Positions 11,548-21,232 are shown, numbered from the stretch's first letter. The stretch is DNA of 64,000 nucleotides from Clostridia bacterium (GCA_017436645.1 JAFSCR010000030.1:10083-74082), one strand, 5' to 3'. A program made the numbers and translations. Notes: generated by a model not told the origin, from the letters alone.

Positions 11548-11590
11548 AATTTAAAAGGCAGAAACGAAATTCGTTTCTGCCTTTTTATTA
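11548..11590. terminator. bidirectional rho-independent terminator
   Basis: The hairpin ggcagaaacgaaattcgtttctgcc is flanked by A- and T-runs. It lies between the convergent Dabb and aroQ genes. Confidence 0.6.
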
Positions 11591-12013
11591 TCTCTTTACT
11601 AAGTACTCCATCGCCTTCTTGTATCCTTCAAACCCAAGACCCATATAGGTCTTTTCGCAGGCTGAGCGGACGAAGGAGATTTGCCGGAAATCCTCTCTTT
11701 TTGTAACGTCCGACAGGTGAACTTCCACCGTGGGAATGGCAACGGATTTTAAGGCATCCAAAATGGCAACGGAAGTATGGGTATAGGCGGCAGGGTTTAT
11801 GACGATGCCGTCTTTTTCCCCGTAAGCTTCCTGGATTTTCGTGACAATATCGCCTTCGTAGTTTGACTGATACACTTCGGCTTCAACGCCAAGGTCTTTT
11901 GCGGTTTTTTCAATAAAGGCAACAAGGTCCCCGTATGTTTCTTTTCCGTAAATGTTCGGCTCCCGTATGCCCAGCATGTTGAGATTCGGGCCGTTAATGA
12001 CAAGAATTTTCAT
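11588..12013 (-). CDS. aroQ: 3-dehydroquinate dehydratase, type II
   Basis: MKILVINGPNLNMLGIREPNIYG is the canonical type II DHQase N-terminus. The start at 12013 overlaps the end of aroE-aroK. Confidence 0.9.
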   Translation of the reverse strand: MKILVINGPNLNMLGIREPNIYGKETYGDLVAFIEKTAKDLGVEAEVYQSNYEGDIVTKIQEAYGEKDGIVINPAAYTHTSVAILDALKSVAIPTVEVHLSDVTKREDFRQISFVRSACEKTYMGLGFEGYKKAMEYLVKR

Positions 12014-13229
12014 AAATGGAAAGCACCCTTTCTGCGATATCTTCTGTTTCAAACCGGTTTTCTACCGTAAAATCGGCAAACCTTTCGTAAAGGGGCCGAC
12101 GGATTTCATACATTTGATGAAGGTCGGCTTTTTCCGACAGGGGCCTGCCGTCCCGTGGAAGCGTTTCAATATCCCGCTTTATCCAAAAGATTACGCCGTT
12201 TTGGTGAAGGAGGGGATAGTTTTCTTCCCTTGTGATGCATCCGCCGCCTGTGGCGAGCACAAGGCCTGACTGCATCCCTAAAGTGGTGAGCACTTCCGTC
12301 TCAATTTTGCGAAAGCCCGCTTCGCCGCTTTCTTTAAAGATTTCAGGGATGGAACAGCCGGCTTTTTCGCAAATTGCCTCATCCGCATCCATAAATTTTC
12401 TGCCCGTTATTTCGGCAAGCTTTTTCCCGAGGGTAGATTTCCCCGAGCCGGGCATCCCGATCAGTACAATATTTTTCTGCTTCATGGAAAGGGAAGCGGT
12501 TACGCTGTCAATGACGGAAAAGGGTAACGCCTTGCCGCCAAAATATTCTGCACTTTCCTTGGCCTGGGCTACCAGCATGGTAAGGCCGTTTGCATGGGGA
12601 ATGCCTAAGTTTTCCGCTTCCAGCAGGAGCGCCGTTTTGTAAGGGTTATAAATTAAATCCAGCACCCCTTCGCATTTTTTAAAATCCGAAAGGACAATGG
12701 GGGACGCACCGGGGTGGGGATACATGCCCACGGGCGTTGTGTTTACAATGACTTCCGCATCCCCGTGGCGGCTTATGTTTTCGTAATTATTCTCGCCACT
12801 TCTTGAAATGACGATAACTTCGCCGGCACCCATATCCCGCAGTACGGCACAAACGGTAACCGAAGCACCGCCGCTACCCAAAACAAGCACCTTTTTGCCT
12901 TTTGGTATAATGCCGCTTTTTTCTACCATATAGGAAAAACCGAAATAGTCCGTGTTGTGGCCGAAAAGCGTGCCGTCCTCCCGTTTTACCACCGTGTTGA
13001 CGCTGCCGAGGCGCTTTGCCGAGTCAGAAAGTTCGTCCATAAACGGCACCACGGTTTTTTTGTAGGGAATGGTAACGTTTATGCCGTCAAAAGGCTTATT
13101 TTGCATAAAGGATTCCACTTCGTCCTTATCTTTTTCAAAAAGGTCGTAGCTGTAATCACCGAGGCAGGAATGAATCTGGGGAGAAAAACTGTGAGAAAGC
13201 TTTTCTCCCAAAAGTCCGCACTTTTTCAT
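11994..13229 (-). CDS. aroE: bifunctional shikimate dehydrogenase (N-terminal) / shikimate kinase (C-terminal) fusion
   Basis: The N-terminal half carries NVTIPYK, GHNTD and VLGSGGAS (AroE). The C-terminal half carries the NIVLIGMPGSGKST P-loop and the shikimate kinase fold (AroK). Confidence 0.9.
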   Translation of the reverse strand: MKKCGLLGEKLSHSFSPQIHSCLGDYSYDLFEKDKDEVESFMQNKPFDGINVTIPYKKTVVPFMDELSDSAKRLGSVNTVVKREDGTLFGHNTDYFGFSYMVEKSGIIPKGKKVLVLGSGGASVTVCAVLRDMGAGEVIVISRSGENNYENISRHGDAEVIVNTTPVGMYPHPGASPIVLSDFKKCEGVLDLIYNPYKTALLLEAENLGIPHANGLTMLVAQAKESAEYFGGKALPFSVIDSVTASLSMKQKNIVLIGMPGSGKSTLGKKLAEITGRKFMDADEAICEKAGCSIPEIFKESGEAGFRKIETEVLTTLGMQSGLVLATGGGCITREENYPLLHQNGVIFWIKRDIETLPRDGRPLSEKADLHQMYEIRRPLYERFADFTVENRFETEDIAERVLSIYENSCH

Positions 13230-13231
13230 GA

Positions 13232-14386
13232 TTACACCATTTCCGTGTAACTGCCGAGATAACGGAAATCTTCGCTGATTTTATCCAGCTCGCAAATAAG
13301 CTGCACGAAGGCCTCGGAATATACGCTTGTCTCTAAATCAAAGTAGAACATAAATTCAAAATTGCGGTTCGGCATGGGACGGCTTTCCAGTTTAATAAGG
13401 TTTATGCCAATGGTATAAAGCCGAGCCAGCACCTTATAAAGTGCACCGGGTCTGTGGGGGAGAATCATCATGATACTCGTTTTGTCAGCACCCGGATAAA
13501 TTTCCAGCTTTCTCGAAATGCAGATAAAGCGGGTATAGTTGTTATCGGAATTCTGTGCTGCTTCCGCAAGACAGCGCAGACCGTAAAGGGAAGCACAGTA
13601 ACGGGAGCTTAAGGCCGCTACATCTCTTCTGTCAGACTCGGCAACCATTTTTGCCGCCAGCGCCGTATTTTCCACCGCTGTCACTTTCACATCGGGACCG
13701 AGGGAGGAGATAAAGTCAGCACACTGGCGGATTGCCTGCTCGTGGGTGTAAATTTCACGGATTTCCGAAAGGTCCACCCCTTCTTTTGCGAGAAGGTTAT
13801 GGTCAACTTTAATGCGAACACTTTTTACAATATAGAAATTATGTTCGAGCATCAGGTCATACACTTTATTTACAGAACCTGCCGTGCTGTTTTCAATGGG
13901 CAGAACACCATAGCGGCAAAGGCCCTTTTCAATGGCGGAGAAAACCTTATCAAAGGTGTCAAAATACATAATGTTGGCACCGGAGAACATTCTGTCGCAG
14001 GCAATCTGGGAATAAGCACCGTCCACGCCTTGACAGGCAATCATGGCGTTTTGGGGAAATTCCATGTTGGTGTTTTCGGCGATGGCATCGGCAATGGTTT
14101 TGTGCAGTTCGTTTTCCGTGTCCAGCACCTTTTCCTGATAGGAACGGCTCAGTTCAAAGAGAAGGGAATATAAAGCGCCTGTATAAGAGGCAAACTTTTC
14201 TTCGGATTTTGCCTGTACGTCCGCAAGCTTTGCACGCTCACGGGCAGCGTCCAGAACTGGAAGCCCGTTTTCCTTTTTAAACGATGCAATCTTTCCGGCA
14301 ACTTCCATTCTTTCGCCGAAAAGACGGACGAGCTCGTCATCAATGCGGTTAATTTCGTCACGATAGGTATGCAGATTGTTTTCCAT
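13232..14386 (-). CDS. pheA: bifunctional chorismate mutase / prephenate dehydratase (P-protein) with a C-terminal ACT domain
   Basis: An N-terminal CM domain (RDEINRIDDELVRLFGERMEV) precedes a PDT domain and an ACT domain (ESRPMPNRNFEFMFYFDLE). The start is chosen at the second ATG, which has a GGAGAA RBS; an alternative ATG lies at 14401. Confidence 0.88.
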   Translation of the reverse strand: MENNLHTYRDEINRIDDELVRLFGERMEVAGKIASFKKENGLPVLDAARERAKLADVQAKSEEKFASYTGALYSLLFELSRSYQEKVLDTENELHKTIADAIAENTNMEFPQNAMIACQGVDGAYSQIACDRMFSGANIMYFDTFDKVFSAIEKGLCRYGVLPIENSTAGSVNKVYDLMLEHNFYIVKSVRIKVDHNLLAKEGVDLSEIREIYTHEQAIRQCADFISSLGPDVKVTAVENTALAAKMVAESDRRDVAALSSRYCASLYGLRCLAEAAQNSDNNYTRFICISRKLEIYPGADKTSIMMILPHRPGALYKVLARLYTIGINLIKLESRPMPNRNFEFMFYFDLETSVYSEAFVQLICELDKISEDFRYLGSYTEMV

Positions 14387-14390
14387 TTTT

Positions 14391-15493
14391 TTATTCTCCA
14401 TTTTTCCAAATCATTTCGTGGTCAAAAAGTGTATCTAAAAGCACCAGCGCCGTCACAGCTTCCATGACGGGCACGGCACGGGGGACGATGCAAGGGTCGT
14501 GTCTGCCGTGGACGGAAACGGGCGTTTCCGTTTTTTTCGAAAGGCTGATGCTCTTTTGTTCTTTACCGATAGATGGTGTGGGCTTTATGCCGACTCGGTA
14601 GACAAACGGCATGCCTGTGGTAATCCCGCCTAAAGTCCCGCCACACCGATTGGTTTCCGTTTTTGCGGTGCCGTTTTCATATAGAAAGGCATCGTTATTT
14701 TCGCTGCCGTAAAGAAGCGTCGCCTCAAAGCCGTTGCCAAATTCAATTCCCCGGATGGCAGGAATGCCGAAAACGGCATGGGCCATTTTGCCTTCCAGAC
14801 GGGAAAACATAGGCGAGCCAAGCCCGGCAGGAAGACCCATGGCACTAACTTCGATTATGCCACCGACGGAATCGGCTTCCTCTCGTGCCTTGTCGATTTC
14901 TGCCTGCATTTTTTCACCGGCATCATCGTCAAATGCGGGGAACGGTTTTCCGGCAACAGAGCGAAGGGCAGGCAGGTCGCTTTCTCTATAGCATGGAGCC
15001 TTGCCTTCCACACCGTGAACCGAGCGGATATGGGCAAAGACCTCGATGCCTTTTTCTTTCAGCATCTGGAGAGCGATGCCGCCGGCTATCGCAATGGGCG
15101 CGGTCAGCCGACCGGAAAAGTGGCCGCCGCCACGCATATCGGCATAACCGCCGTATTTGATTTCCGCCGTAAGATCCGCATGGCCGGGGCGGGGAATGTC
15201 AAGGTGGGCGTTATAATCGGCACTTCTTGTGTTGGTGTTTTGGATGATGGCCATAATGGGACTGCCTGTCGTTACATTTTCATAAACACCGGATAAAAAC
15301 AGGGGCGCATCTCCTTCTTTTCGGGGCGTGGAGAAACGGTTTTGCCCCGGTGCACGGCGCTTAAAAAAGCGGAAAGTGCTTCCATATCAATGGTAAAGCC
15401 TGCAGGAATGCCGGAAAGAATCATGCCGATGGCGTCGCCGTGAGATTCTCCTGCAATGGAAAACTTGATGTTTTTGCCGAGCGTATTACTCAT
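14391..15493 (-). pseudogene. aroC: chorismate synthase interrupted by a +1 frameshift in an A6/T6 homopolymer (15363-15368), or a sequencing error at that homopolymer
   Basis: The N-terminal 73 aa (15272-15493, MSNTLGKNIKFSIAGESHGDAIGMILSGIPAG) and the C-terminal 287 aa (14391-15254) are in different frames. Removing one T from gcttttttaagc restores ...[46 protein letters not shown]..., a canonical AroC sequence. Confidence 0.8.
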
Positions 15494-16764
15494 TTTAGGT
15501 CTCTCCTTTCAATACTGCCGCCGAGGAGGGAAAAGTGTTCCCAGAACTTCGGATAGGACTTCATAACAGCCTCTGCGCCCTGTACGGTGACGGGGCCTGT
15601 GCATAAAATGGAGGCAATGGCAGCGCTCATGGCAATGCGGTGGTCGCCTGCGCTTTGTGCGGTGCCGCCGGAAAGGGGTGTGCCGCCACGGACGATAAGG
15701 CCGTCGTCCGTCTGAAGGACTTTGCCGCCTAAGGCGGTGAGCATATCACAAACAGTCAGGAGTCGGTCGCTTTCCTTAAGGCGCAGCCGCTCGGCACCGT
15801 AAATTTTCGTTTCGCCTTCTGCCGCTGCGGCAAGAACGGCTAAAATCGGTACAAGGTCGGGAATTTGCGAAGCATCAATTTCCATGCCATGCATATTCCC
15901 TTTTGAAACCGAAACAGCGTCCCCGTTACATTCTACCTTTGCACCAAACTGCTTTAAAAGGCTTACAATCGCTTTGTCGCCCTGCAAGGAAGCGTGGTTT
16001 ACGCCAAAAAGGGTAATCCCGCCTCCCAAAGCACCGGCAACGAGCCAGAAGGCGGCATTGGACCAGTCGCCCTCGACCTTAAGAGGCGTTTTTTCAGGAT
16101 AGGACGGGCGCTGATTGCCCGAAATAGAATATGTAGAATCTTTATAAGTAAAGTCAATTTGAAACTGCCGGATGGCTTCCTCTGTCATAGCAATATACTG
16201 TGCCGATTCTGTTTTGCCCGTAAGACGGAGCGTGCTTTCGCCCGAAAGAAGGGGCAGGGCAAAAAGGAGACCGGAAATAAACTGGGATGAGATATTGCCG
16301 GGGAGGGTATAGGTGCCGCTACGGAGTTTTCCACCGCAGGAAATGGTGTTTTCGTTTTCCCAAGAGAGGGTCATGCCACCGCGCACAAGTTCTTCCCAAA
16401 GGGGAGAGAGGGGGCGGCTCGGGAGCCTTCCCGAAAGCTTCAGCTTGGCCTCTGCACCAAGGGCACCCACGACGGGGAGAATGAAGCGGAGGGTAGAACC
16501 GCTTTCGCCACAGTCCAGTATGGGGCTTTTGGGCACCGTTTTTATGGGCGAGACGGAAAAACCGTCCGCTGTTTTTACAATCTTTGCGCCAAGGGAAATG
16601 AGGCAACGTACCGTTGCATCAATATCTTCAGAAGATTCGTTTATCAGTAAATTTACAGGTGCATCGGAAAGGGCGGCACAGATGAGAAGACGATGCGCCC
16701 GGGATTTGGATGCGATACATGTAATTTTTCCCCCAAGACTTTGGGGAGAAATTATGATTTCCAT
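15490..16764 (-). CDS. aroA: 3-phosphoshikimate 1-carboxyvinyltransferase (EPSP synthase)
   Basis: The 424-aa product has the EPSPS fold signatures (LGNSGTT-like, RPL...) and overlaps aroC by 4 nt. Confidence 0.95.
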   Translation of the reverse strand: MEIIISPQSLGGKITCIASKSRAHRLLICAALSDAPVNLLINESSEDIDATVRCLISLGAKIVKTADGFSVSPIKTVPKSPILDCGESGSTLRFILPVVGALGAEAKLKLSGRLPSRPLSPLWEELVRGGMTLSWENENTISCGGKLRSGTYTLPGNISSQFISGLLFALPLLSGESTLRLTGKTESAQYIAMTEEAIRQFQIDFTYKDSTYSISGNQRPSYPEKTPLKVEGDWSNAAFWLVAGALGGGITLFGVNHASLQGDKAIVSLLKQFGAKVECNGDAVSVSKGNMHGMEIDASQIPDLVPILAVLAAAAEGETKIYGAERLRLKESDRLLTVCDMLTALGGKVLQTDDGLIVRGGTPLSGGTAQSAGDHRIAMSAAIASILCTGPVTVQGAEAVMKSYPKFWEHFSLLGGSIERRDLK

Positions 16765-16774
16765 AGTAAGCTCC

Positions 16775-17830
16775 TTATATAACGGCGGATTCTAAAAAGG
16801 AAAGAAGGGAATCCGTTGATTTTTTGAGAAGTGTGCATTTGCCGATTTCGGAGGGAATTACAACGGTTAAACTGTCACCGCTTCGTTTTTTATCGGAAAG
16901 CATGATGCCATATAGGTCTTTTGCCGAATAGTCTGTTTCCAGGGGAAGGGAAAAGGCTTTTAGCACAGCTTCAATTTCGTCCGGCACTTCCTCCTCGCAA
17001 AGGGAGGCGGCAAGGGCACTTTTTGCCATAAGCATCATGCCGATGGAAACAGCCCGACCGTGAGAAAGGGAAAAATTACTCATTTTTTCCACGGCGTGGC
17101 CGAAGGTGTGGCCGAAATTCAGGAGCATCCGCTGTCCTGATTCAAACTCGTCCGCACGGACAATTTCGCTTTTCATTTCGATACATTTGGCGATTACCCA
17201 TGTGCGGTCGAAGTTCTCTCCCTTTTCCTTCAGGTGCATAAAAAGGTCACGGCTTCCGAGTACGCCGTATTTAATCACTTCTGCCGAGCCGTCCCTGAAA
17301 ATATCCTGCGGTAGTGTATTCAAAACAGCAGGGTCGCAGAGAACCATTTTCGGCTGGTAAAATGCACCTGCCAGATTTTTTCCTGCTCGCAGGTCAATGG
17401 CGGTTTTGCCGCCAACGGAAGAATCCACCATGGCAAGAAGGGTGGTGGGAATTTGCACAAAGGAAATGCCTCTTAAATATGTTGCCGCCGCAAACCCTGC
17501 CATGTCACCCACAACACCGCCGCCGAGGGCGATAATAAGGTCACTTCTCGTCAGATGGTTTTCGGCTAAAAATTCAAGTATTTCGATATAGGTTTCGGCG
17601 CTTTTGGACTGTTCGCCATGGGGAAAAACAAATTTTACCGTGCGGATGCCTTCTTTTAAAAGAGAAGCCTCCAAAACTGTGCTGTATAGGGCGTTTACGG
17701 TGTCATCTGTTATGATGGCGGCGTAGTCGTTTTTGCAAAAAGGGGCAATATGGGTGCCTGCATCCGCAAGAATGCCGTTTTCGAGAAGGACATCATAAGG
17801 GCAGGATGCATCAACATGAATTTTTTTCAT
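16775..17830 (-). CDS. aroB: 3-dehydroquinate synthase
   Basis: GGGVVGDMAGFAAATYLRGISFVQIPTTLLAMVDSSVGGKTAIDL is the DHQS NAD/metal-binding core. Confidence 0.95.
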   Translation of the reverse strand: MKKIHVDASCPYDVLLENGILADAGTHIAPFCKNDYAAIITDDTVNALYSTVLEASLLKEGIRTVKFVFPHGEQSKSAETYIEILEFLAENHLTRSDLIIALGGGVVGDMAGFAAATYLRGISFVQIPTTLLAMVDSSVGGKTAIDLRAGKNLAGAFYQPKMVLCDPAVLNTLPQDIFRDGSAEVIKYGVLGSRDLFMHLKEKGENFDRTWVIAKCIEMKSEIVRADEFESGQRMLLNFGHTFGHAVEKMSNFSLSHGRAVSIGMMLMAKSALAASLCEEEVPDEIEAVLKAFSLPLETDYSAKDLYGIMLSDKKRSGDSLTVVIPSEIGKCTLLKKSTDSLLSFLESAVI

Positions 17831-18657
17831 CCGTCAATTTCTCCTTTCATGCGGCGGCCGTCCTCTAAAAGGGCACGGAGCGTTTGGGCATCGTCACGCT
17901 CCATGGCGTCACGGTATTCGGAAAGGCGTTCGATTATGCCGCTAAGTTCCTTTAAAAGGTGGGTTTTGTTTTCTAAAAACAGCTCCGTCCACATATCGGG
18001 GTTCAGCCATGCAACACGGGTTAAGTCCTTGTAACTTCCGGCGGAAAGACCTTTATGGTTCTTGGCACCGGGGGACTTAATGTATGCATTGGAAACGACG
18101 TGGGCAAGCTGGGAGGTGAAAGCAATCATTTCGTCGTGCTTGTCTGCATCCGTGACGGAAAAAGAGCCAAAGCCTAAAGGCGAAAGAACGGATTTGATAT
18201 GTTCGAAAAGCTCTATATCGTCATAGACAGGCGGAACAATTACCATAGGCGCACCGACGAACATATCGCTTCGGCTGTATTTAAATCCCGAATGATGGGT
18301 GCCTGCCATGGGATGACCGCCTACGAAAATAAAACCGTGTTCTTTGGAAAGGGCGAAACCGGCTTCGCAGATTCCCTTTTTCGTGCCGCAAAAATCAATG
18401 ACGAATTTGCCTTTCGGAAAAAGAGCAGCGTTTTCATGTAGATATGCAATAGAAGCTTTGGGATAAAGGCAGAGAAGCACAAGGTCGCATTCTCCCAGCG
18501 CCTCGCTCGTCAGCACACCGTCTGCGGCGCCGCAAAGGATGGCGTAGTCCAGCATGACCTTATCTTTATCATATGCCAAAACAGTATGGCCTGCTTCCTT
18601 ATATGCTCTTGCGGCACTGCCGCCGATAAGGCCAAGCCCTAAAATACCGACTTGCAT
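17827..18657 (-). CDS. tyrA: prephenate dehydrogenase
   Basis: An N-terminal Rossmann motif GILGLGLIGGS and the PDH fold are present. It overlaps aroB by 4 nt. Confidence 0.9.
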   Translation of the reverse strand: MQVGILGLGLIGGSAARAYKEAGHTVLAYDKDKVMLDYAILCGAADGVLTSEALGECDLVLLCLYPKASIAYLHENAALFPKGKFVIDFCGTKKGICEAGFALSKEHGFIFVGGHPMAGTHHSGFKYSRSDMFVGAPMVIVPPVYDDIELFEHIKSVLSPLGFGSFSVTDADKHDEMIAFTSQLAHVVSNAYIKSPGAKNHKGLSAGSYKDLTRVAWLNPDMWTELFLENKTHLLKELSGIIERLSEYRDAMERDDAQTLRALLEDGRRMKGEIDG

Positions 18658-18669
18658 TTTAATCGCTCC

Positions 18670-19668
18670 TTATATAATTTCACGCACTTTTTGAATTTTG
18701 CCTGCAAGATGGGCAAAATTATCGGGGGTCAGGGATTGGGCACCGTCACAAAGGGCGTGTGCAGGGTCGTTGTGTACTTCAATCATCAGTCCGTCTGCGC
18801 CTGCCGCCACAGAAGCCATGGCCATGGGTTCTACAAGGCGGGATTTACCCGTGGCATGACTAGGGTCAGCAATAACGGGCAGGTGAGAAAGCTCATGGAG
18901 AAGAGGAATTGCGGAAATATCCATGGTGTTTCTCGTGTAGGTTTCATAGGTGCGGATGCCCCGCTCACAAAGAATGATGTTGCCGTTTCCTTCGCTCATG
19001 ATATATTCGGCACTCATTAAAAATTCTTTTAAGGTGTTTGCAAGGCCACGCTTTAAAAGAATGGTCTTCTTCGTTTTTCCAAGCTCCTTTAAAAGTTCGA
19101 AATTCTGCATATTTCGTGCGCCGACCTGAATGACATCCACATCTTCGAAAAGGGGCAGGTGGTTAGCGTTCATAATTTCCGTTACAATCGGCATGCCCGT
19201 TTCTTTTTTCGCTTCCAATAAATACTCGATGCCGTGGGCCTTAAGACCCTGAAAGTCATAGGGGGAGGTGCGGGGTTTGAAGGCACCGCCACGAAGCAGC
19301 GTGGCGCCTGCCGCTTTTACGCTTTTTGCAACCGCAATCATTTGTTCTCTGGATTCTACCGAGCAGGGGCCTGCAATCATGGCAAAATGGCCGCCGCCGA
19401 TTTTCACACCGCCGATGTCGATTACCGTGTCTTCGGGATGAAAGTTTCGGTTGCACTGCTTGAAGGGGTCAGAAATCCGCTTTACCGTATCTACAATGGC
19501 AAGGCTGTCGAGAAGCTCCATGTCAATCTTGGAGGTGTCACCCACAAGGCCTAAAACGGTATAATCCACGCCATAGGAAGGATGTACCTCAACGCCCTGT
19601 TCCTCAAGCCAGCTCGTCAAATGTGCAATTTGTTCCTTCGATGTGTTCTTTTTAATTACGGCAATCAT
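18670..19668 (-). CDS. aroF: 3-deoxy-7-phosphoheptulonate (DAHP) synthase, type I-beta with an N-terminal ACT/FL regulatory domain
   Basis: The start is chosen at MIAVIKK with RBS AAAGGAG. The KDSA-like TIM barrel carries GPCSVES and LRGGAFKPRTSPY motifs. A regulatory domain of about 70 aa sits at the N-terminus. Confidence 0.9.
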   Translation of the reverse strand: MIAVIKKNTSKEQIAHLTSWLEEQGVEVHPSYGVDYTVLGLVGDTSKIDMELLDSLAIVDTVKRISDPFKQCNRNFHPEDTVIDIGGVKIGGGHFAMIAGPCSVESREQMIAVAKSVKAAGATLLRGGAFKPRTSPYDFQGLKAHGIEYLLEAKKETGMPIVTEIMNANHLPLFEDVDVIQVGARNMQNFELLKELGKTKKTILLKRGLANTLKEFLMSAEYIMSEGNGNIILCERGIRTYETYTRNTMDISAIPLLHELSHLPVIADPSHATGKSRLVEPMAMASVAAGADGLMIEVHNDPAHALCDGAQSLTPDNFAHLAGKIQKVREII

Positions 19669-19701
19669 GATAAACGCTCCTTTAAAAAAGATAAAATAAA
19701 A

Positions 19702-19746
19702 GGCCACACAGAGGATTTCTGTGTAGCCGAATTCGCTTTTGCGGAC
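19702..19746 (-). terminator. intrinsic terminator (attenuator) in the aro operon leader, about 25 nt upstream of the DAHP synthase RBS
   Basis: On the minus strand GGCUACACAGAAAUCCUCUGUGUGGCC forms a 10/11-bp stem and is followed by UUUUAUUUUAUCUUUUUU. Confidence 0.6.
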
Positions 19747-19760
19747 CTTAAAAGTTCTTC

Positions 19761-19850
19761 CTATTTGTCTGCAACACAAAAATCCTTTACTTCGCTGTTT
19801 CTAAAGTAAAAGTAAAAGAAATATTCATATGCAAACGTATTCTTATGCAT
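19761..19850 (-). CDS. candidate aromatic-amino-acid leader peptide (29 aa) containing YEYFFYFYF
   Basis: The ATG at 19850 sits 7 nt after an AAAGGGAAG RBS. The product is MHKNTFAYEYFFYFYFRNSEVKDFCVADK*, in which 8 of 9 consecutive codons are Tyr or Phe. It lies between the promoter and the terminator hairpin. Confidence 0.5.
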   Translation of the reverse strand: MHKNTFAYEYFFYFYFRNSEVKDFCVADK

Positions 19851-19884
19851 AATAGGCTTCCCTTTCAGTTTATTAGATATACCC

Positions 19885-19913
19885 AGTATACTCTCGAGCA
19901 TGCGGTTTGTCAA
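19885..19913 (-). promoter_or_regulatory. sigmaA-type promoter of the aro supraoperon (TTGACA-17-TATACT on the minus strand)
   Basis: The minus strand reads cTTGACAaaccgcatgctcgagagTATACTggg. The leader peptide RBS begins about 25 nt downstream. Confidence 0.5.
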
Positions 19914-19946
19914 GTGTTTTTTTGAAGAATTTATATTTTTTTCGGA

Positions 19947-19975
19947 TTGACAGAAAATACATTCCATAGTATAAT
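19947..19975 (+). promoter_or_regulatory. sigmaA-type promoter for the PPIase gene (TTGACA-17-TATAAT)
   Basis: gaTTGACAgaaaatacattccatagTATAATc, with RBS AAAGGAGA before the ATG at 20006. Confidence 0.5.
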
Positions 19976-20005
19976 CAAAAGAAAAAAGCGTAAAGGAGAA
20001 ACACG

Positions 20006-21232
20006 ATGAATAAGAAGGTTTTAGCCATGCTTTTGGCAGGGCTCGTCCTGTTCACTTCCGCTTCTGCAGCTTCCATGGAGTTTACCGTTGGCGGCACAGC
20101 GCTGAAGGTGGAAAAAGAAGGCGAAATAGAAGAAAAGGCTTTAGAGGCGGCACCGTTTATTAATGCAGAGAGCCGTACTATGGTACCTGTCCGTGCCATT
20201 TCCGAAGCGTTTGGCGCAGAGGTGGGCTGGGATGAGAACAGCCGCACCGTTACGGTAAAGAAAGACGGCGTGGAAATAAAACTTGTAATTGATAAGAATG
20301 AAGCTACGGTAAACGGCGAAGTGAAAAAGCTGGATACCTGTCCCGTTATTGTGGCGGACAGGACAATGGTGCCCCTTCGCTTTATCGGCGAAGCACTTTC
20401 CTGTAATGTACAGTATGCATCCGTTACAAAACAGATTTTAATTGACGACAGCGAGCCGGTGCTTTCTTGCGGCGATCAGACGTTTGGCTTTGCAGAATTT
20501 AAGGCGCTGTACGATGTTTTTTATTTAGGAAATCTGGAGAACGCCACGTCTTCCGGCATGGATGATGCCGCATATGGCCAGCTTGTGGCGCAGATTGCGC
20601 TGAAGACGGCAGAAAACATGCTTTGGATGAAGGCGGCATACCCTGCAGCTGTGCTTTCGGCCGAAGATATAGAAGAACTGCGCCCCATGACGGAAGAAAC
20701 TGCGGCAGTCTTGACCGGGCTGGATGGATATCTCGCATTGATATTTGAAAAGAATCATATCGCTTCCGGCAAACCCGTTCTGCGTCTGGTGCAGGCAACG
20801 GAAGATGTGAAAGCATTTTATGAAGAAAACTACGTTTTGGCAAAACACGTTCTGGTATTCGATGAAGCATCAGCCAATATGATTTATGAAAAGGCTGTGA
20901 GCGGTGCGGATTTTGATATCCTGGTGGCGGAAAACGGTCAGGATACCGGCATGCTGACAAACCCCGAAGGCTATGTTTTCACAAAAGGTGAAATGGTGGC
21001 AGAATTTGAGGAAGCCACTTTTGCCGCCGCCATAGGTGAGATTACAAAACCCGTTAAGAGCGAATTCGGCTACCATGTTATACAGCGCCTGCCCCTTCCC
21101 GCTTTTTCGGCAGAACAGGCAGAGTTGGTTTCCGCCAGAATTGCAAATGCAAAACTGGAACAAACGGAAAAACCGAAAACCGTGATGGAAATTGAAACGC
21201 TTTATGAAAAACTGGGCGTAAATACAAAATAA
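20006..21232 (+). CDS. secreted PpiC/parvulin-type peptidyl-prolyl isomerase (PrsA-like) with an N-terminal copper-amine-oxidase-like (stalk) domain
   Basis: A signal peptide is followed by a Cu_amine_oxidN1-like repeat (PFINAESRTMVPVRAISEAFGAEVGWDENSRTVTV; VIVADRTMVPLRFIGEAL). The C-terminal rotamase domain contains GEITKPVKSEFGYHVIQRL. Confidence 0.75.
   Translation: MNKKVLAMLLAGLVLFTSASAASMEFTVGGTALKVEKEGEIEEKALEAAPFINAESRTMVPVRAISEAFGAEVGWDENSRTVTVKKDGVEIKLVIDKNEATVNGEVKKLDTCPVIVADRTMVPLRFIGEALSCNVQYASVTKQILIDDSEPVLSCGDQTFGFAEFKALYDVFYLGNLENATSSGMDDAAYGQLVAQIALKTAENMLWMKAAYPAAVLSAEDIEELRPMTEETAAVLTGLDGYLALIFEKNHIASGKPVLRLVQATEDVKAFYEENYVLAKHVLVFDEASANMIYEKAVSGADFDILVAENGQDTGMLTNPEGYVFTKGEMVAEFEEATFAAAIGEITKPVKSEFGYHVIQRLPLPAFSAEQAELVSARIANAKLEQTEKPKTVMEIETLYEKLGVNTK

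Follow-up and report, generated by a model that had tools for sequence, protein, structure and literature searches.

The leader region in front of an aromatic amino acid operon very probably acts as a ribosome-mediated, leader-peptide transcription attenuator, which would sense charged tRNA-Tyr and tRNA-Phe and control the genes aroF-tyrA-aroB-aroA-aroC-pheA-aroEK-aroQ. It lies in the 64,000-nt stretch of Clostridia bacterium DNA analysed here (hereafter the window). Most likely, this leader would turn the eight-gene aromatic pathway on only when Tyr/Phe run short. The proposal is carried by the sequence elements of the leader, their reading frame, their competing pairings and the conservation of all of these in related loci. 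Leader and operon are on the minus strand, and all coordinates given for them below refer to this strand.

The leader/aro transcript is preceded by a sigma-70-type promoter (19885-19913) matching the consensus at 11 of 12 positions, with a -35 box TTGACA at 19913-19908, a 17-nt spacer and a -10 box TATACT at 19890-19885, in agreement with an earlier note on this DNA. From its position we infer a transcription start near 19878. A Shine-Dalgarno (SD) sequence, GAAAGGG (19860-19866), is located about 9 nt 5′ of the AUG of a leader ORF of 29 codons plus UAG (19761-19850; ATG at 19850, UAG at 19763-19761), the product of which reads MHKNTFAYEYFFYFYFRNSEVKDFCVADK. Codons 8–16 (19803-19829) encode Y E Y F F Y F Y F, that is 8 Tyr or Phe in 9 codons, as already noticed earlier together with the good ribosome-binding site of this ORF; at these codons ribosomes are proposed to stall when Tyr-tRNA or Phe-tRNA runs low. 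With a threshold of at least 7 aromatic residues in 9, the leader ORF was the only such small ORF on both strands of the window. Longer versions of the ORF, with starts at 19967, 19913 or 19901, were rejected: they have no SD, and their starts precede the predicted transcription start. After the terminator described below come the ribosome-binding site AAAGGAG and the ATG of aroF (DAHP synthase) at 19668, so that promoter, SD, ORF, terminator and structural gene stand in the order that an attenuator requires. The leader is not an assembly artefact, since the 322-nt intergenic sequence that contains it is 100% identical in two independent metagenome assemblies.

Two further features of this locus can be mentioned. 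On the plus strand, an opposite-facing promoter with a complete 12/12 sigma-70 consensus (TTGACA-17-TATAAT, 19947-19975) faces a gene for a PrsA-like peptidyl-prolyl isomerase with a Cu_amine_oxidN1-type N-terminal domain (20006-21232), and the -35 box of this promoter is 34 nt away from that of the aro leader promoter. Secondly, in one metagenome contig (L081, 1768-1908) a gene caller annotated a 46-aa protein which is an N-terminally extended leader ORF, with a start preceding the predicted transcription start. The leader ORFs of this aroF-leader family are likely mis-annotated or missed in databases: neither Rfam nor genome annotation includes the family, and gene callers skip the ORF or call it in an over-long version.

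Downstream of the leader, NCBIfam matches identified eight co-directional and tightly packed genes (11588-19668), bearing out the eight-gene aro operon of the earlier note. These are, in order, aroF (DAHP synthase, 19668-18670), tyrA (prephenate dehydrogenase), aroB (3-dehydroquinate synthase), aroA (EPSP synthase), aroC (chorismate synthase, frameshifted in the window), pheA (chorismate mutase/prephenate dehydratase), an aroE-aroK fusion (shikimate dehydrogenase-shikimate kinase) and aroQ (type II dehydroquinase, ending at 11588). No strong or convincing internal promoter or terminator was found within the operon. The genes encode the common pathway and the Tyr and Phe branches, and trp genes are absent; the presence of tyrA and pheA without trp genes thus matches a leader with Tyr and Phe codons and without Trp.

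We also noted several features of the operon itself. Just 3′ of aroQ, a hairpin of 15 perfect base pairs between A and T runs (11553-11585) would act as a two-way terminator marking the operon end. The aroE-aroK fusion is a single 411-aa ORF (11994-13229) with shikimate dehydrogenase at residues 1–245 and shikimate kinase at residues 247–407. Four-base overlaps between aroA (TGA) and aroC (ATG) at 15490-15493, where the ATGA was confirmed in the sequence, and between tyrA and aroB at 17827-17830, from ORF coordinates alone, suggest translational coupling inside the operon. In the window, aroC (14391-15493) is split by a 1-nt deletion at about 15362 (TTTTTTAAAGC to TTTTTTAAGC) into a 73-aa N-terminal fragment (15493-15275) and a 287-aa C-terminal ORF (15254-14391). 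Among same-species assemblies, aroC is intact (367 aa) in L083 and L084 while L085 carries the same deletion; the defect is a true frameshift at strain level or else a homopolymer error that recurs. Two compensating indels were ruled out as its origin, the intact alleles showing a single 1-nt deletion. Finally, the window differs from three other assemblies by a T/A polymorphism at 14400, which provides pheA with an upstream ATG and gives a PheA of 389 aa against 384 aa called elsewhere; because of this start-site polymorphism, the exact-sequence look-up returned no record for the exact window PheA protein.

The intrinsic terminator (19692-19728, read from sequence and fold) consists of an 11-bp stem with a 5-nt loop (19728-19702) and the U tract UUUUAUUUUA (19701-19692). 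Its arms, GGCUACACAGA/UCUGUGUGGCC, are GC-rich and the hairpin has a stability of -17.7 kcal/mol. The earlier note had recognised a strong terminator with a U tract but had drawn its span as 19746-19702; the stem is the shorter 19728-19702 and ends 33 nt before the aroF ATG. Upstream of it, the minimum free energy (MFE) fold contains a hairpin P1 whose 5′ strand, region 1 (19809-19836; GUUUGCAUAUGAA...UUCUUUUACUU), overlaps the aromatic codons. The 3′ strand of P1 is region 2 (19767-19793; MFE and constrained folds), and the 3′ part of this region, GGAUUUUUGUGUUGC (19785-19771), is the antiterminator strand. A segment proposed earlier as antiterminator, UUUGUGUUGC, is indeed a pairing candidate, but it maps at 19780-19771, inside codons 24–27 of the ORF and not past its stop. 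Region 3 (19713-19728) comprises the 5′ arm and loop of the terminator (GGCUACACAGAAAUCC) and pairs, in constrained folds, with either region 2 or region 4.

The unconstrained fold of the leader contained P1 and the terminator (-49 kcal/mol, z=-4.2 against shuffles), and the antiterminator never appeared in plain MFE folds of the full-length leader. We then used constrained folds, in which all RNA up to the 3′ edge of the ribosome was masked and the RNA ended before the 3′ arm of the terminator. With the ribosomal A site on codons 8–16 and the 3′ arm not yet made, the MFE structure was the antiterminator, GGAUUUUUGUGU(U)GC with GC(U)ACACAGAAAUCC, with 12 contiguous pairs and 2 further ones. 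When the ribosome was placed on the stop codon instead, it masked region 2 and the terminator alone formed. At equilibrium, in the full-length RNA, the terminator is always more stable than the antiterminator (-31.0 versus -22.2 kcal/mol); the choice must therefore be kinetic, as in classical systems. Mutually exclusive 1:2, 2:3 (antiterminator) and 3:4 pairings are thus present in the folds of the window and are kept in its relatives, placed so that the position of the ribosome would decide between them. Such mutually exclusive folding was one of the checks proposed for the pheL/trpL-type architecture, of which the ORF, the codon cluster, the terminator and the exclusive pairings are all present.

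A simple model of regulation can be drawn from this arrangement. Transcription would begin near 19878 and the leader ORF would be translated while emerging. When Tyr and Phe are plentiful, the ribosome would reach the UAG and cover region 2 (19785-19771), or, alternatively, it would leave and hairpin P1 (1:2) would re-form. By either route region 3 would pair with region 4, the terminator would form and RNA polymerase would halt at the U tract (19701-19692), with an expected short RNA of about 180 nt. When Tyr or Phe is scarce, the ribosome would stall on codons 8–16 and keep region 1 open; region 2 (GGAUUUUUGUGU.GC) would then pair with region 3 (GC.ACACAGAAAUCC) before the 3′ arm of the terminator exists. 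Once the antiterminator is formed, polymerase would continue into aroF. In this model we infer the stalling, the timing of the kinetic competition and the response to amino acids.

Since the equilibrium favours the terminator, the switch would depend on kinetics and on ribosomes keeping pace with the polymerase. Bacillus subtilis, another Firmicute, is reported to lack ribosome-polymerase coupling (PMC7858274). Data from Clostridioides difficile argue against runaway transcription in that organism, where premature termination was also mapped 5′ of aroF (PMC8237595). The leader would offer a test case of whether ribosomes keep pace with RNA polymerase in gut Clostridia.

The conservation of the leader was examined in the 80 closest loci retrieved by a DAHP synthase protein scan with one genome per species (63–81% identity). 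Most of them come from uncultured Clostridia (Oscillospiraceae, Faecousia, Lachnospiraceae, Agathobacter, Emergencia/Anaerovoracaceae and Christensenellaceae), and Angelakisella massiliensis and a Pseudoflavonifractor isolate are also represented. A small ORF with a Tyr/Phe run was present in about 70 of the 80 loci, typically 70–180 nt 5′ of the gene, and about 10 lacked the element. The F/Y leader was absent at L010, L022, L023, L029, L030, L038, L053, L064 and L068, contigs labelled Bacteroidaceae and Treponema among them, and no Rfam family was detected upstream of such leaderless DAHP synthase loci (L010, L022, etc.). We scored codon runs in 79 scorable upstream regions, 790 dinucleotide shuffles and 79 reverse complements. 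A stretch of 9 residues with at least 7 aromatic ones was found in 46 of the 79 real sequences and in none of the shuffles (0/790) or reverse complements (0/79); with at least 6, the counts were 63/79 real, 8/790 shuffled and 2/79 reversed. The aromatic run is thus conserved in orthologous loci to a degree well above chance, a point on which the earlier reading had been made to depend. Over 51 aligned leaders, 18% of the residues are F and 17% are Y, with hardly any W. Counting the window together with its relatives, 70 leaders were scored for a downstream terminator; 69 of them have a strong intrinsic one, and the mean stability is -20 kcal/mol.

The positions of the pairing regions relative to the reading frame are also constrained. 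Region 2 begins 13–25 nt (mode 21) past the last aromatic codon and would not be covered by a stalled ribosome. Stop codons fall in two classes: in 19 loci the ORF ends 6–13 nt before region 2, often with tandem UAA UAG inside the P1 3′ arm, and in 13 loci, including the window, it ends 13–51 nt past the start of region 2, resulting in recurrent '..LCC..' or 'FCV' peptide tails. The shortest leader peptide has 14 aa and the longest 47 aa. Where residues outside the aromatic run are conserved, they follow the RNA pairing, as for FAAE, which corresponds to UUUGCAGCnGAA, a mimic of the terminator 5′ arm. As a side observation made on L012, L015, L020, L025, L031, L034, L035, L051, L054 and others (leader regions at about 2810-2990), the tandem UAA UAG stops of the short-peptide class sit in a conserved P1 3′ arm (GUAAUAG), the window exemplifies the long-peptide class, and the '..LCC..' and 'FCV' tails of long peptides are simply translated antiterminator sequence.

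The reading frame itself bears on a first alternative, a TRAP-like or PyrR-like protein-mediated attenuator, in which an amino-acid-activated RNA-binding protein would read UAY/UUY repeats and the ORF would be incidental. TRAP is known to act on trp genes in Firmicutes, and a site for protein binding could just as well account for the triplet periodicity of UAC/UAU/UUU and for the unusually strong nucleotide conservation of the core UACUUUUACUUU...AAGUAAAAGUGAUUUGUGCUGCAA. However, in the model-based alignment of 51 leaders, where the SD column is conserved, an SD and a start codon followed by an open frame through the run were found in the F/Y frame of 50/51 leaders, versus 1/51 in each of the other two frames, and in-frame stops occupy constrained positions beside region 2. 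A protein-only mechanism needs neither. Moreover, no candidate regulator gene adjoins the operon, the divergent neighbour being the PrsA-like isomerase. We therefore regard regulation by an RNA-binding protein as very unlikely, and ribosome-mediated attenuation remains the preferred explanation of the conserved frame.

Conservation of the RNA structure was analysed on an alignment of 24 leaders, which revealed a strongly conserved core. In this alignment the aromatic codons, with consensus CUACUAUUACUUUUUU (UACUUUUACUUU in the window), form the 5′ arm of hairpin P1; the P1 3′ arm has the consensus AAAAAGUAAUAG (AAGUAAAGG in the window) and is followed by AUUUGUGCUGCA, a motif conserved in relatives. 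Beyond a variable spacer comes the terminator, with GCCGCACAGA as its 5′ arm. A covariance model built on the same 24 leaders was searched against 81 sources: 51 gave a match at E<0.01, every one of them just 5′ of a DAHP synthase gene. In the window, the sole match was the leader itself (19693-19868), without any second copy.

Upper P1 stem and terminator are paired at 97% in the 51-sequence alignment, which was fitted to the structure of the model, as compared with 34–52% in slid controls. All 18 pairs of these two elements change on both sides (18/18), and none of 500 column shuffles reached the observed values. For the antiterminator, AUUUGUGCUGC with GCnGCACAGAA, pairing was scored on a MAFFT alignment of the 24 selected leaders, this pairing being part of no model; it was kept in 93.5% of cells versus 27–65% in slid registers. 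Covariation of the antiterminator is thin because the sequence is highly conserved, with one position varying C-G / U-A / U-G together with the terminator's own partner. In tests that need no alignment, the mean z was -1.26 for 2:3 pairing and -1.8 for 1:2 pairing; 33% and 49% of loci, respectively, were at p<0.05. The lower P1 stem (UUUGCAGC with GCUGCAAA) was paired at 68.5% column-wise, a low value in a poorly aligned region where the alignment slips register.

A second possibility is direct sensing of tRNA or of a metabolite, the leader being a T-box, a riboswitch or another catalogued structured RNA. Firmicutes usually rely on T-boxes to sense amino acids. Nevertheless, no Rfam 15 family (riboswitch, T-box, sRNA, rRNA and tRNA models) reached its gathering score anywhere in the 64-kb window, no T-box match was found even at E≤10 in the interval 19400-20200, and neither T-boxes nor riboswitches or other Rfam families at threshold were detected in 25 related loci. 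The covariance-model check that the earlier note had called for thus came back empty for this leader. What speaks for a catalogued RNA is one weak match of the trpB motif (RF04312) overlapping the leader (19692-19831, minus strand; E=0.33); its 25.7 bits are far under the gathering score of 59, and ten related leaders gave no trpB-motif match at E≤1. A relationship to this motif was consequently rejected: the single sub-threshold match does not recur in relatives and we take it as a resemblance of architecture alone. In addition, a T-box would be larger and more elaborate than this leader, which is about 185 nt long and has one simple hairpin. Direct sensing of this kind appears to us extremely improbable.

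Hardly any credit can finally be given to the idea that the small ORF codes for a hydrophobic micro-protein with a function, or that it arose by chance in a U-rich leader (such leaders readily give Phe codons), next to a constitutive or partial terminator: the 46-aa version annotated in one metagenome contig might support it but starts 5′ of the predicted transcription start, peptide length varies from 14 to 47 aa, residues outside the F/Y run are conserved only where RNA pairing demands it (FAAE is UUUGCAGC and LCC is CUGUGCUGC), shuffle and reverse-strand controls exclude a chance ORF, and with a promoter immediately upstream there is no same-strand upstream gene in need of a terminator.

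Read as a translation-coupled attenuator, the leader would give many gut anaerobes a single tRNA-charging sensor for their entire Tyr/Phe pathway. It would also represent a clean and strongly conserved case of translation-coupled attenuation in Clostridia, a group usually credited with T-boxes, TRAP and riboswitches. The element with the core UACUUUUACUUU...AAGUAAAAGUGAUUUGUGCUGCAA was found in 51 species-level genomes labelled Oscillospiraceae, Lachnospiraceae, Anaerovoracaceae and other unclassified Clostridia, and it is absent from Rfam. One may speculate that it forms a family distinct from the published uORF-12 and uORF-13 motifs, working as a two-amino-acid sensor (Tyr or Phe) and implying tight coupling of ribosome and polymerase; we consider this doubtful. 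If true, the prevalence of such a family would point to gut Clostridia being tightly coupled, unlike B. subtilis, for which runaway transcription has been reported.

In the pheL-pheA and trpL-trpEDCBA systems of Escherichia coli, attenuation follows a four-region logic (1:2, 2:3 and 3:4) with regulatory codons in region 1, a stop codon that lets the terminating ribosome block region 2, and an intrinsic terminator formed by 3:4. The window leader shares this logic, together with the placement of codons and stop and the 3:4 terminator. Unlike pheL and trpL, to which it has no sequence relationship, it occurs in a Gram-positive lineage, and whereas each E. coli leader responds to one amino acid and serves a single branch, it carries both Tyr and Phe codons in front of the common pathway and both branches.

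An experimentally supported counterpart is the aroR leader 5′ of aroF in Corynebacterium glutamicum (Neshat et al. 2014, as summarised in PMC11802643). According to that summary, a Phe-Tyr-Phe leader peptide precedes a DAHP synthase operon, as in our case, and read-through rises when ribosomes stall on these codons. The C. glutamicum system belongs to Actinobacteria and has a much shorter aromatic run than the window leader, and the same summary describes a response to Phe limitation, not to Tyr. Its peptide and RNA structure were considered distinct from the Firmicutes motifs by Stav et al. (PMC6429828).

Two other RNAs are comparable in part. The uORFC-13-1 motif of Acholeplasma is likewise a candidate uORF with Phe codons beside a terminator, 5′ of aroF; it differs in being restricted to Acholeplasma and environmental sequences (24 representatives) and is described with at least one Phe codon and no Tyr/Phe run (PMC8632094). 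The trpB motif (RF04312) has a similar two-hairpin architecture in Firmicutes, with the antiterminator in the right shoulder of P1 and the terminator as second hairpin, but it occurs mostly with transporter genes; its authors called it a 'strong riboswitch candidate' and could not exclude a classic attenuator (PMC11109978).

Attenuation of this type had been presented in the earlier note as unusual for Firmicutes. This view does not stand: the F/Y leader lies 5′ of most of the 80 nearest DAHP synthase genes, and Firmicutes already have documented or predicted leader-peptide attenuators for his and ilv-leu and, in Clostridia specifically, F/Y uORFs associated with aroF. Those for his come from PMC2965389 and PMC9413887, and a leucine-rich attenuator peptide for branched-chain amino acid synthesis is reported for Staphylococcus aureus in PMC5794164.

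The closest precedent is found in the supplement of Stav et al. 2019 (BMC Microbiol 19:66, PMC6429828), with two 'aromatic amino acid attenuators', uORF-12 and uORF-13, found from Clostridium novyi (type example in C. novyi NT, NC_008593.1/2309418-2308872). Their uORF-12 has 1258 representatives, mostly 5′ of transporters. uORF-13 has 336, from Bacillales, Clostridiales, Thermoanaerobacterales, Negativicutes and environmental DNA; about half are located 5′ of aroF, and a short ORF with F-Y-F within P1 is followed by a terminator (PMC6429828). The motif is a prediction, for which its authors proposed a trp-attenuator-like working (PMC6429828), and it is absent from Rfam 15. Compared by verbal description, our leaders resemble it in having a short ORF with F/Y codons enclosed by P1 and then a terminator; both occur in Firmicutes including Clostridiales and in many environmental sequences, 5′ of aroF, tyrA and other shikimate genes. 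They differ in carrying 6–9 aromatic codons, as against the short published F-Y-F consensus. The window leader is thus best filed as a well-supported further case of an already predicted kind of attenuator, which would leave the repertoire of mechanisms unchanged; its Tyr/Phe run is longer than F-Y-F, its core is deeply conserved and it is widely distributed in gut Clostridia.
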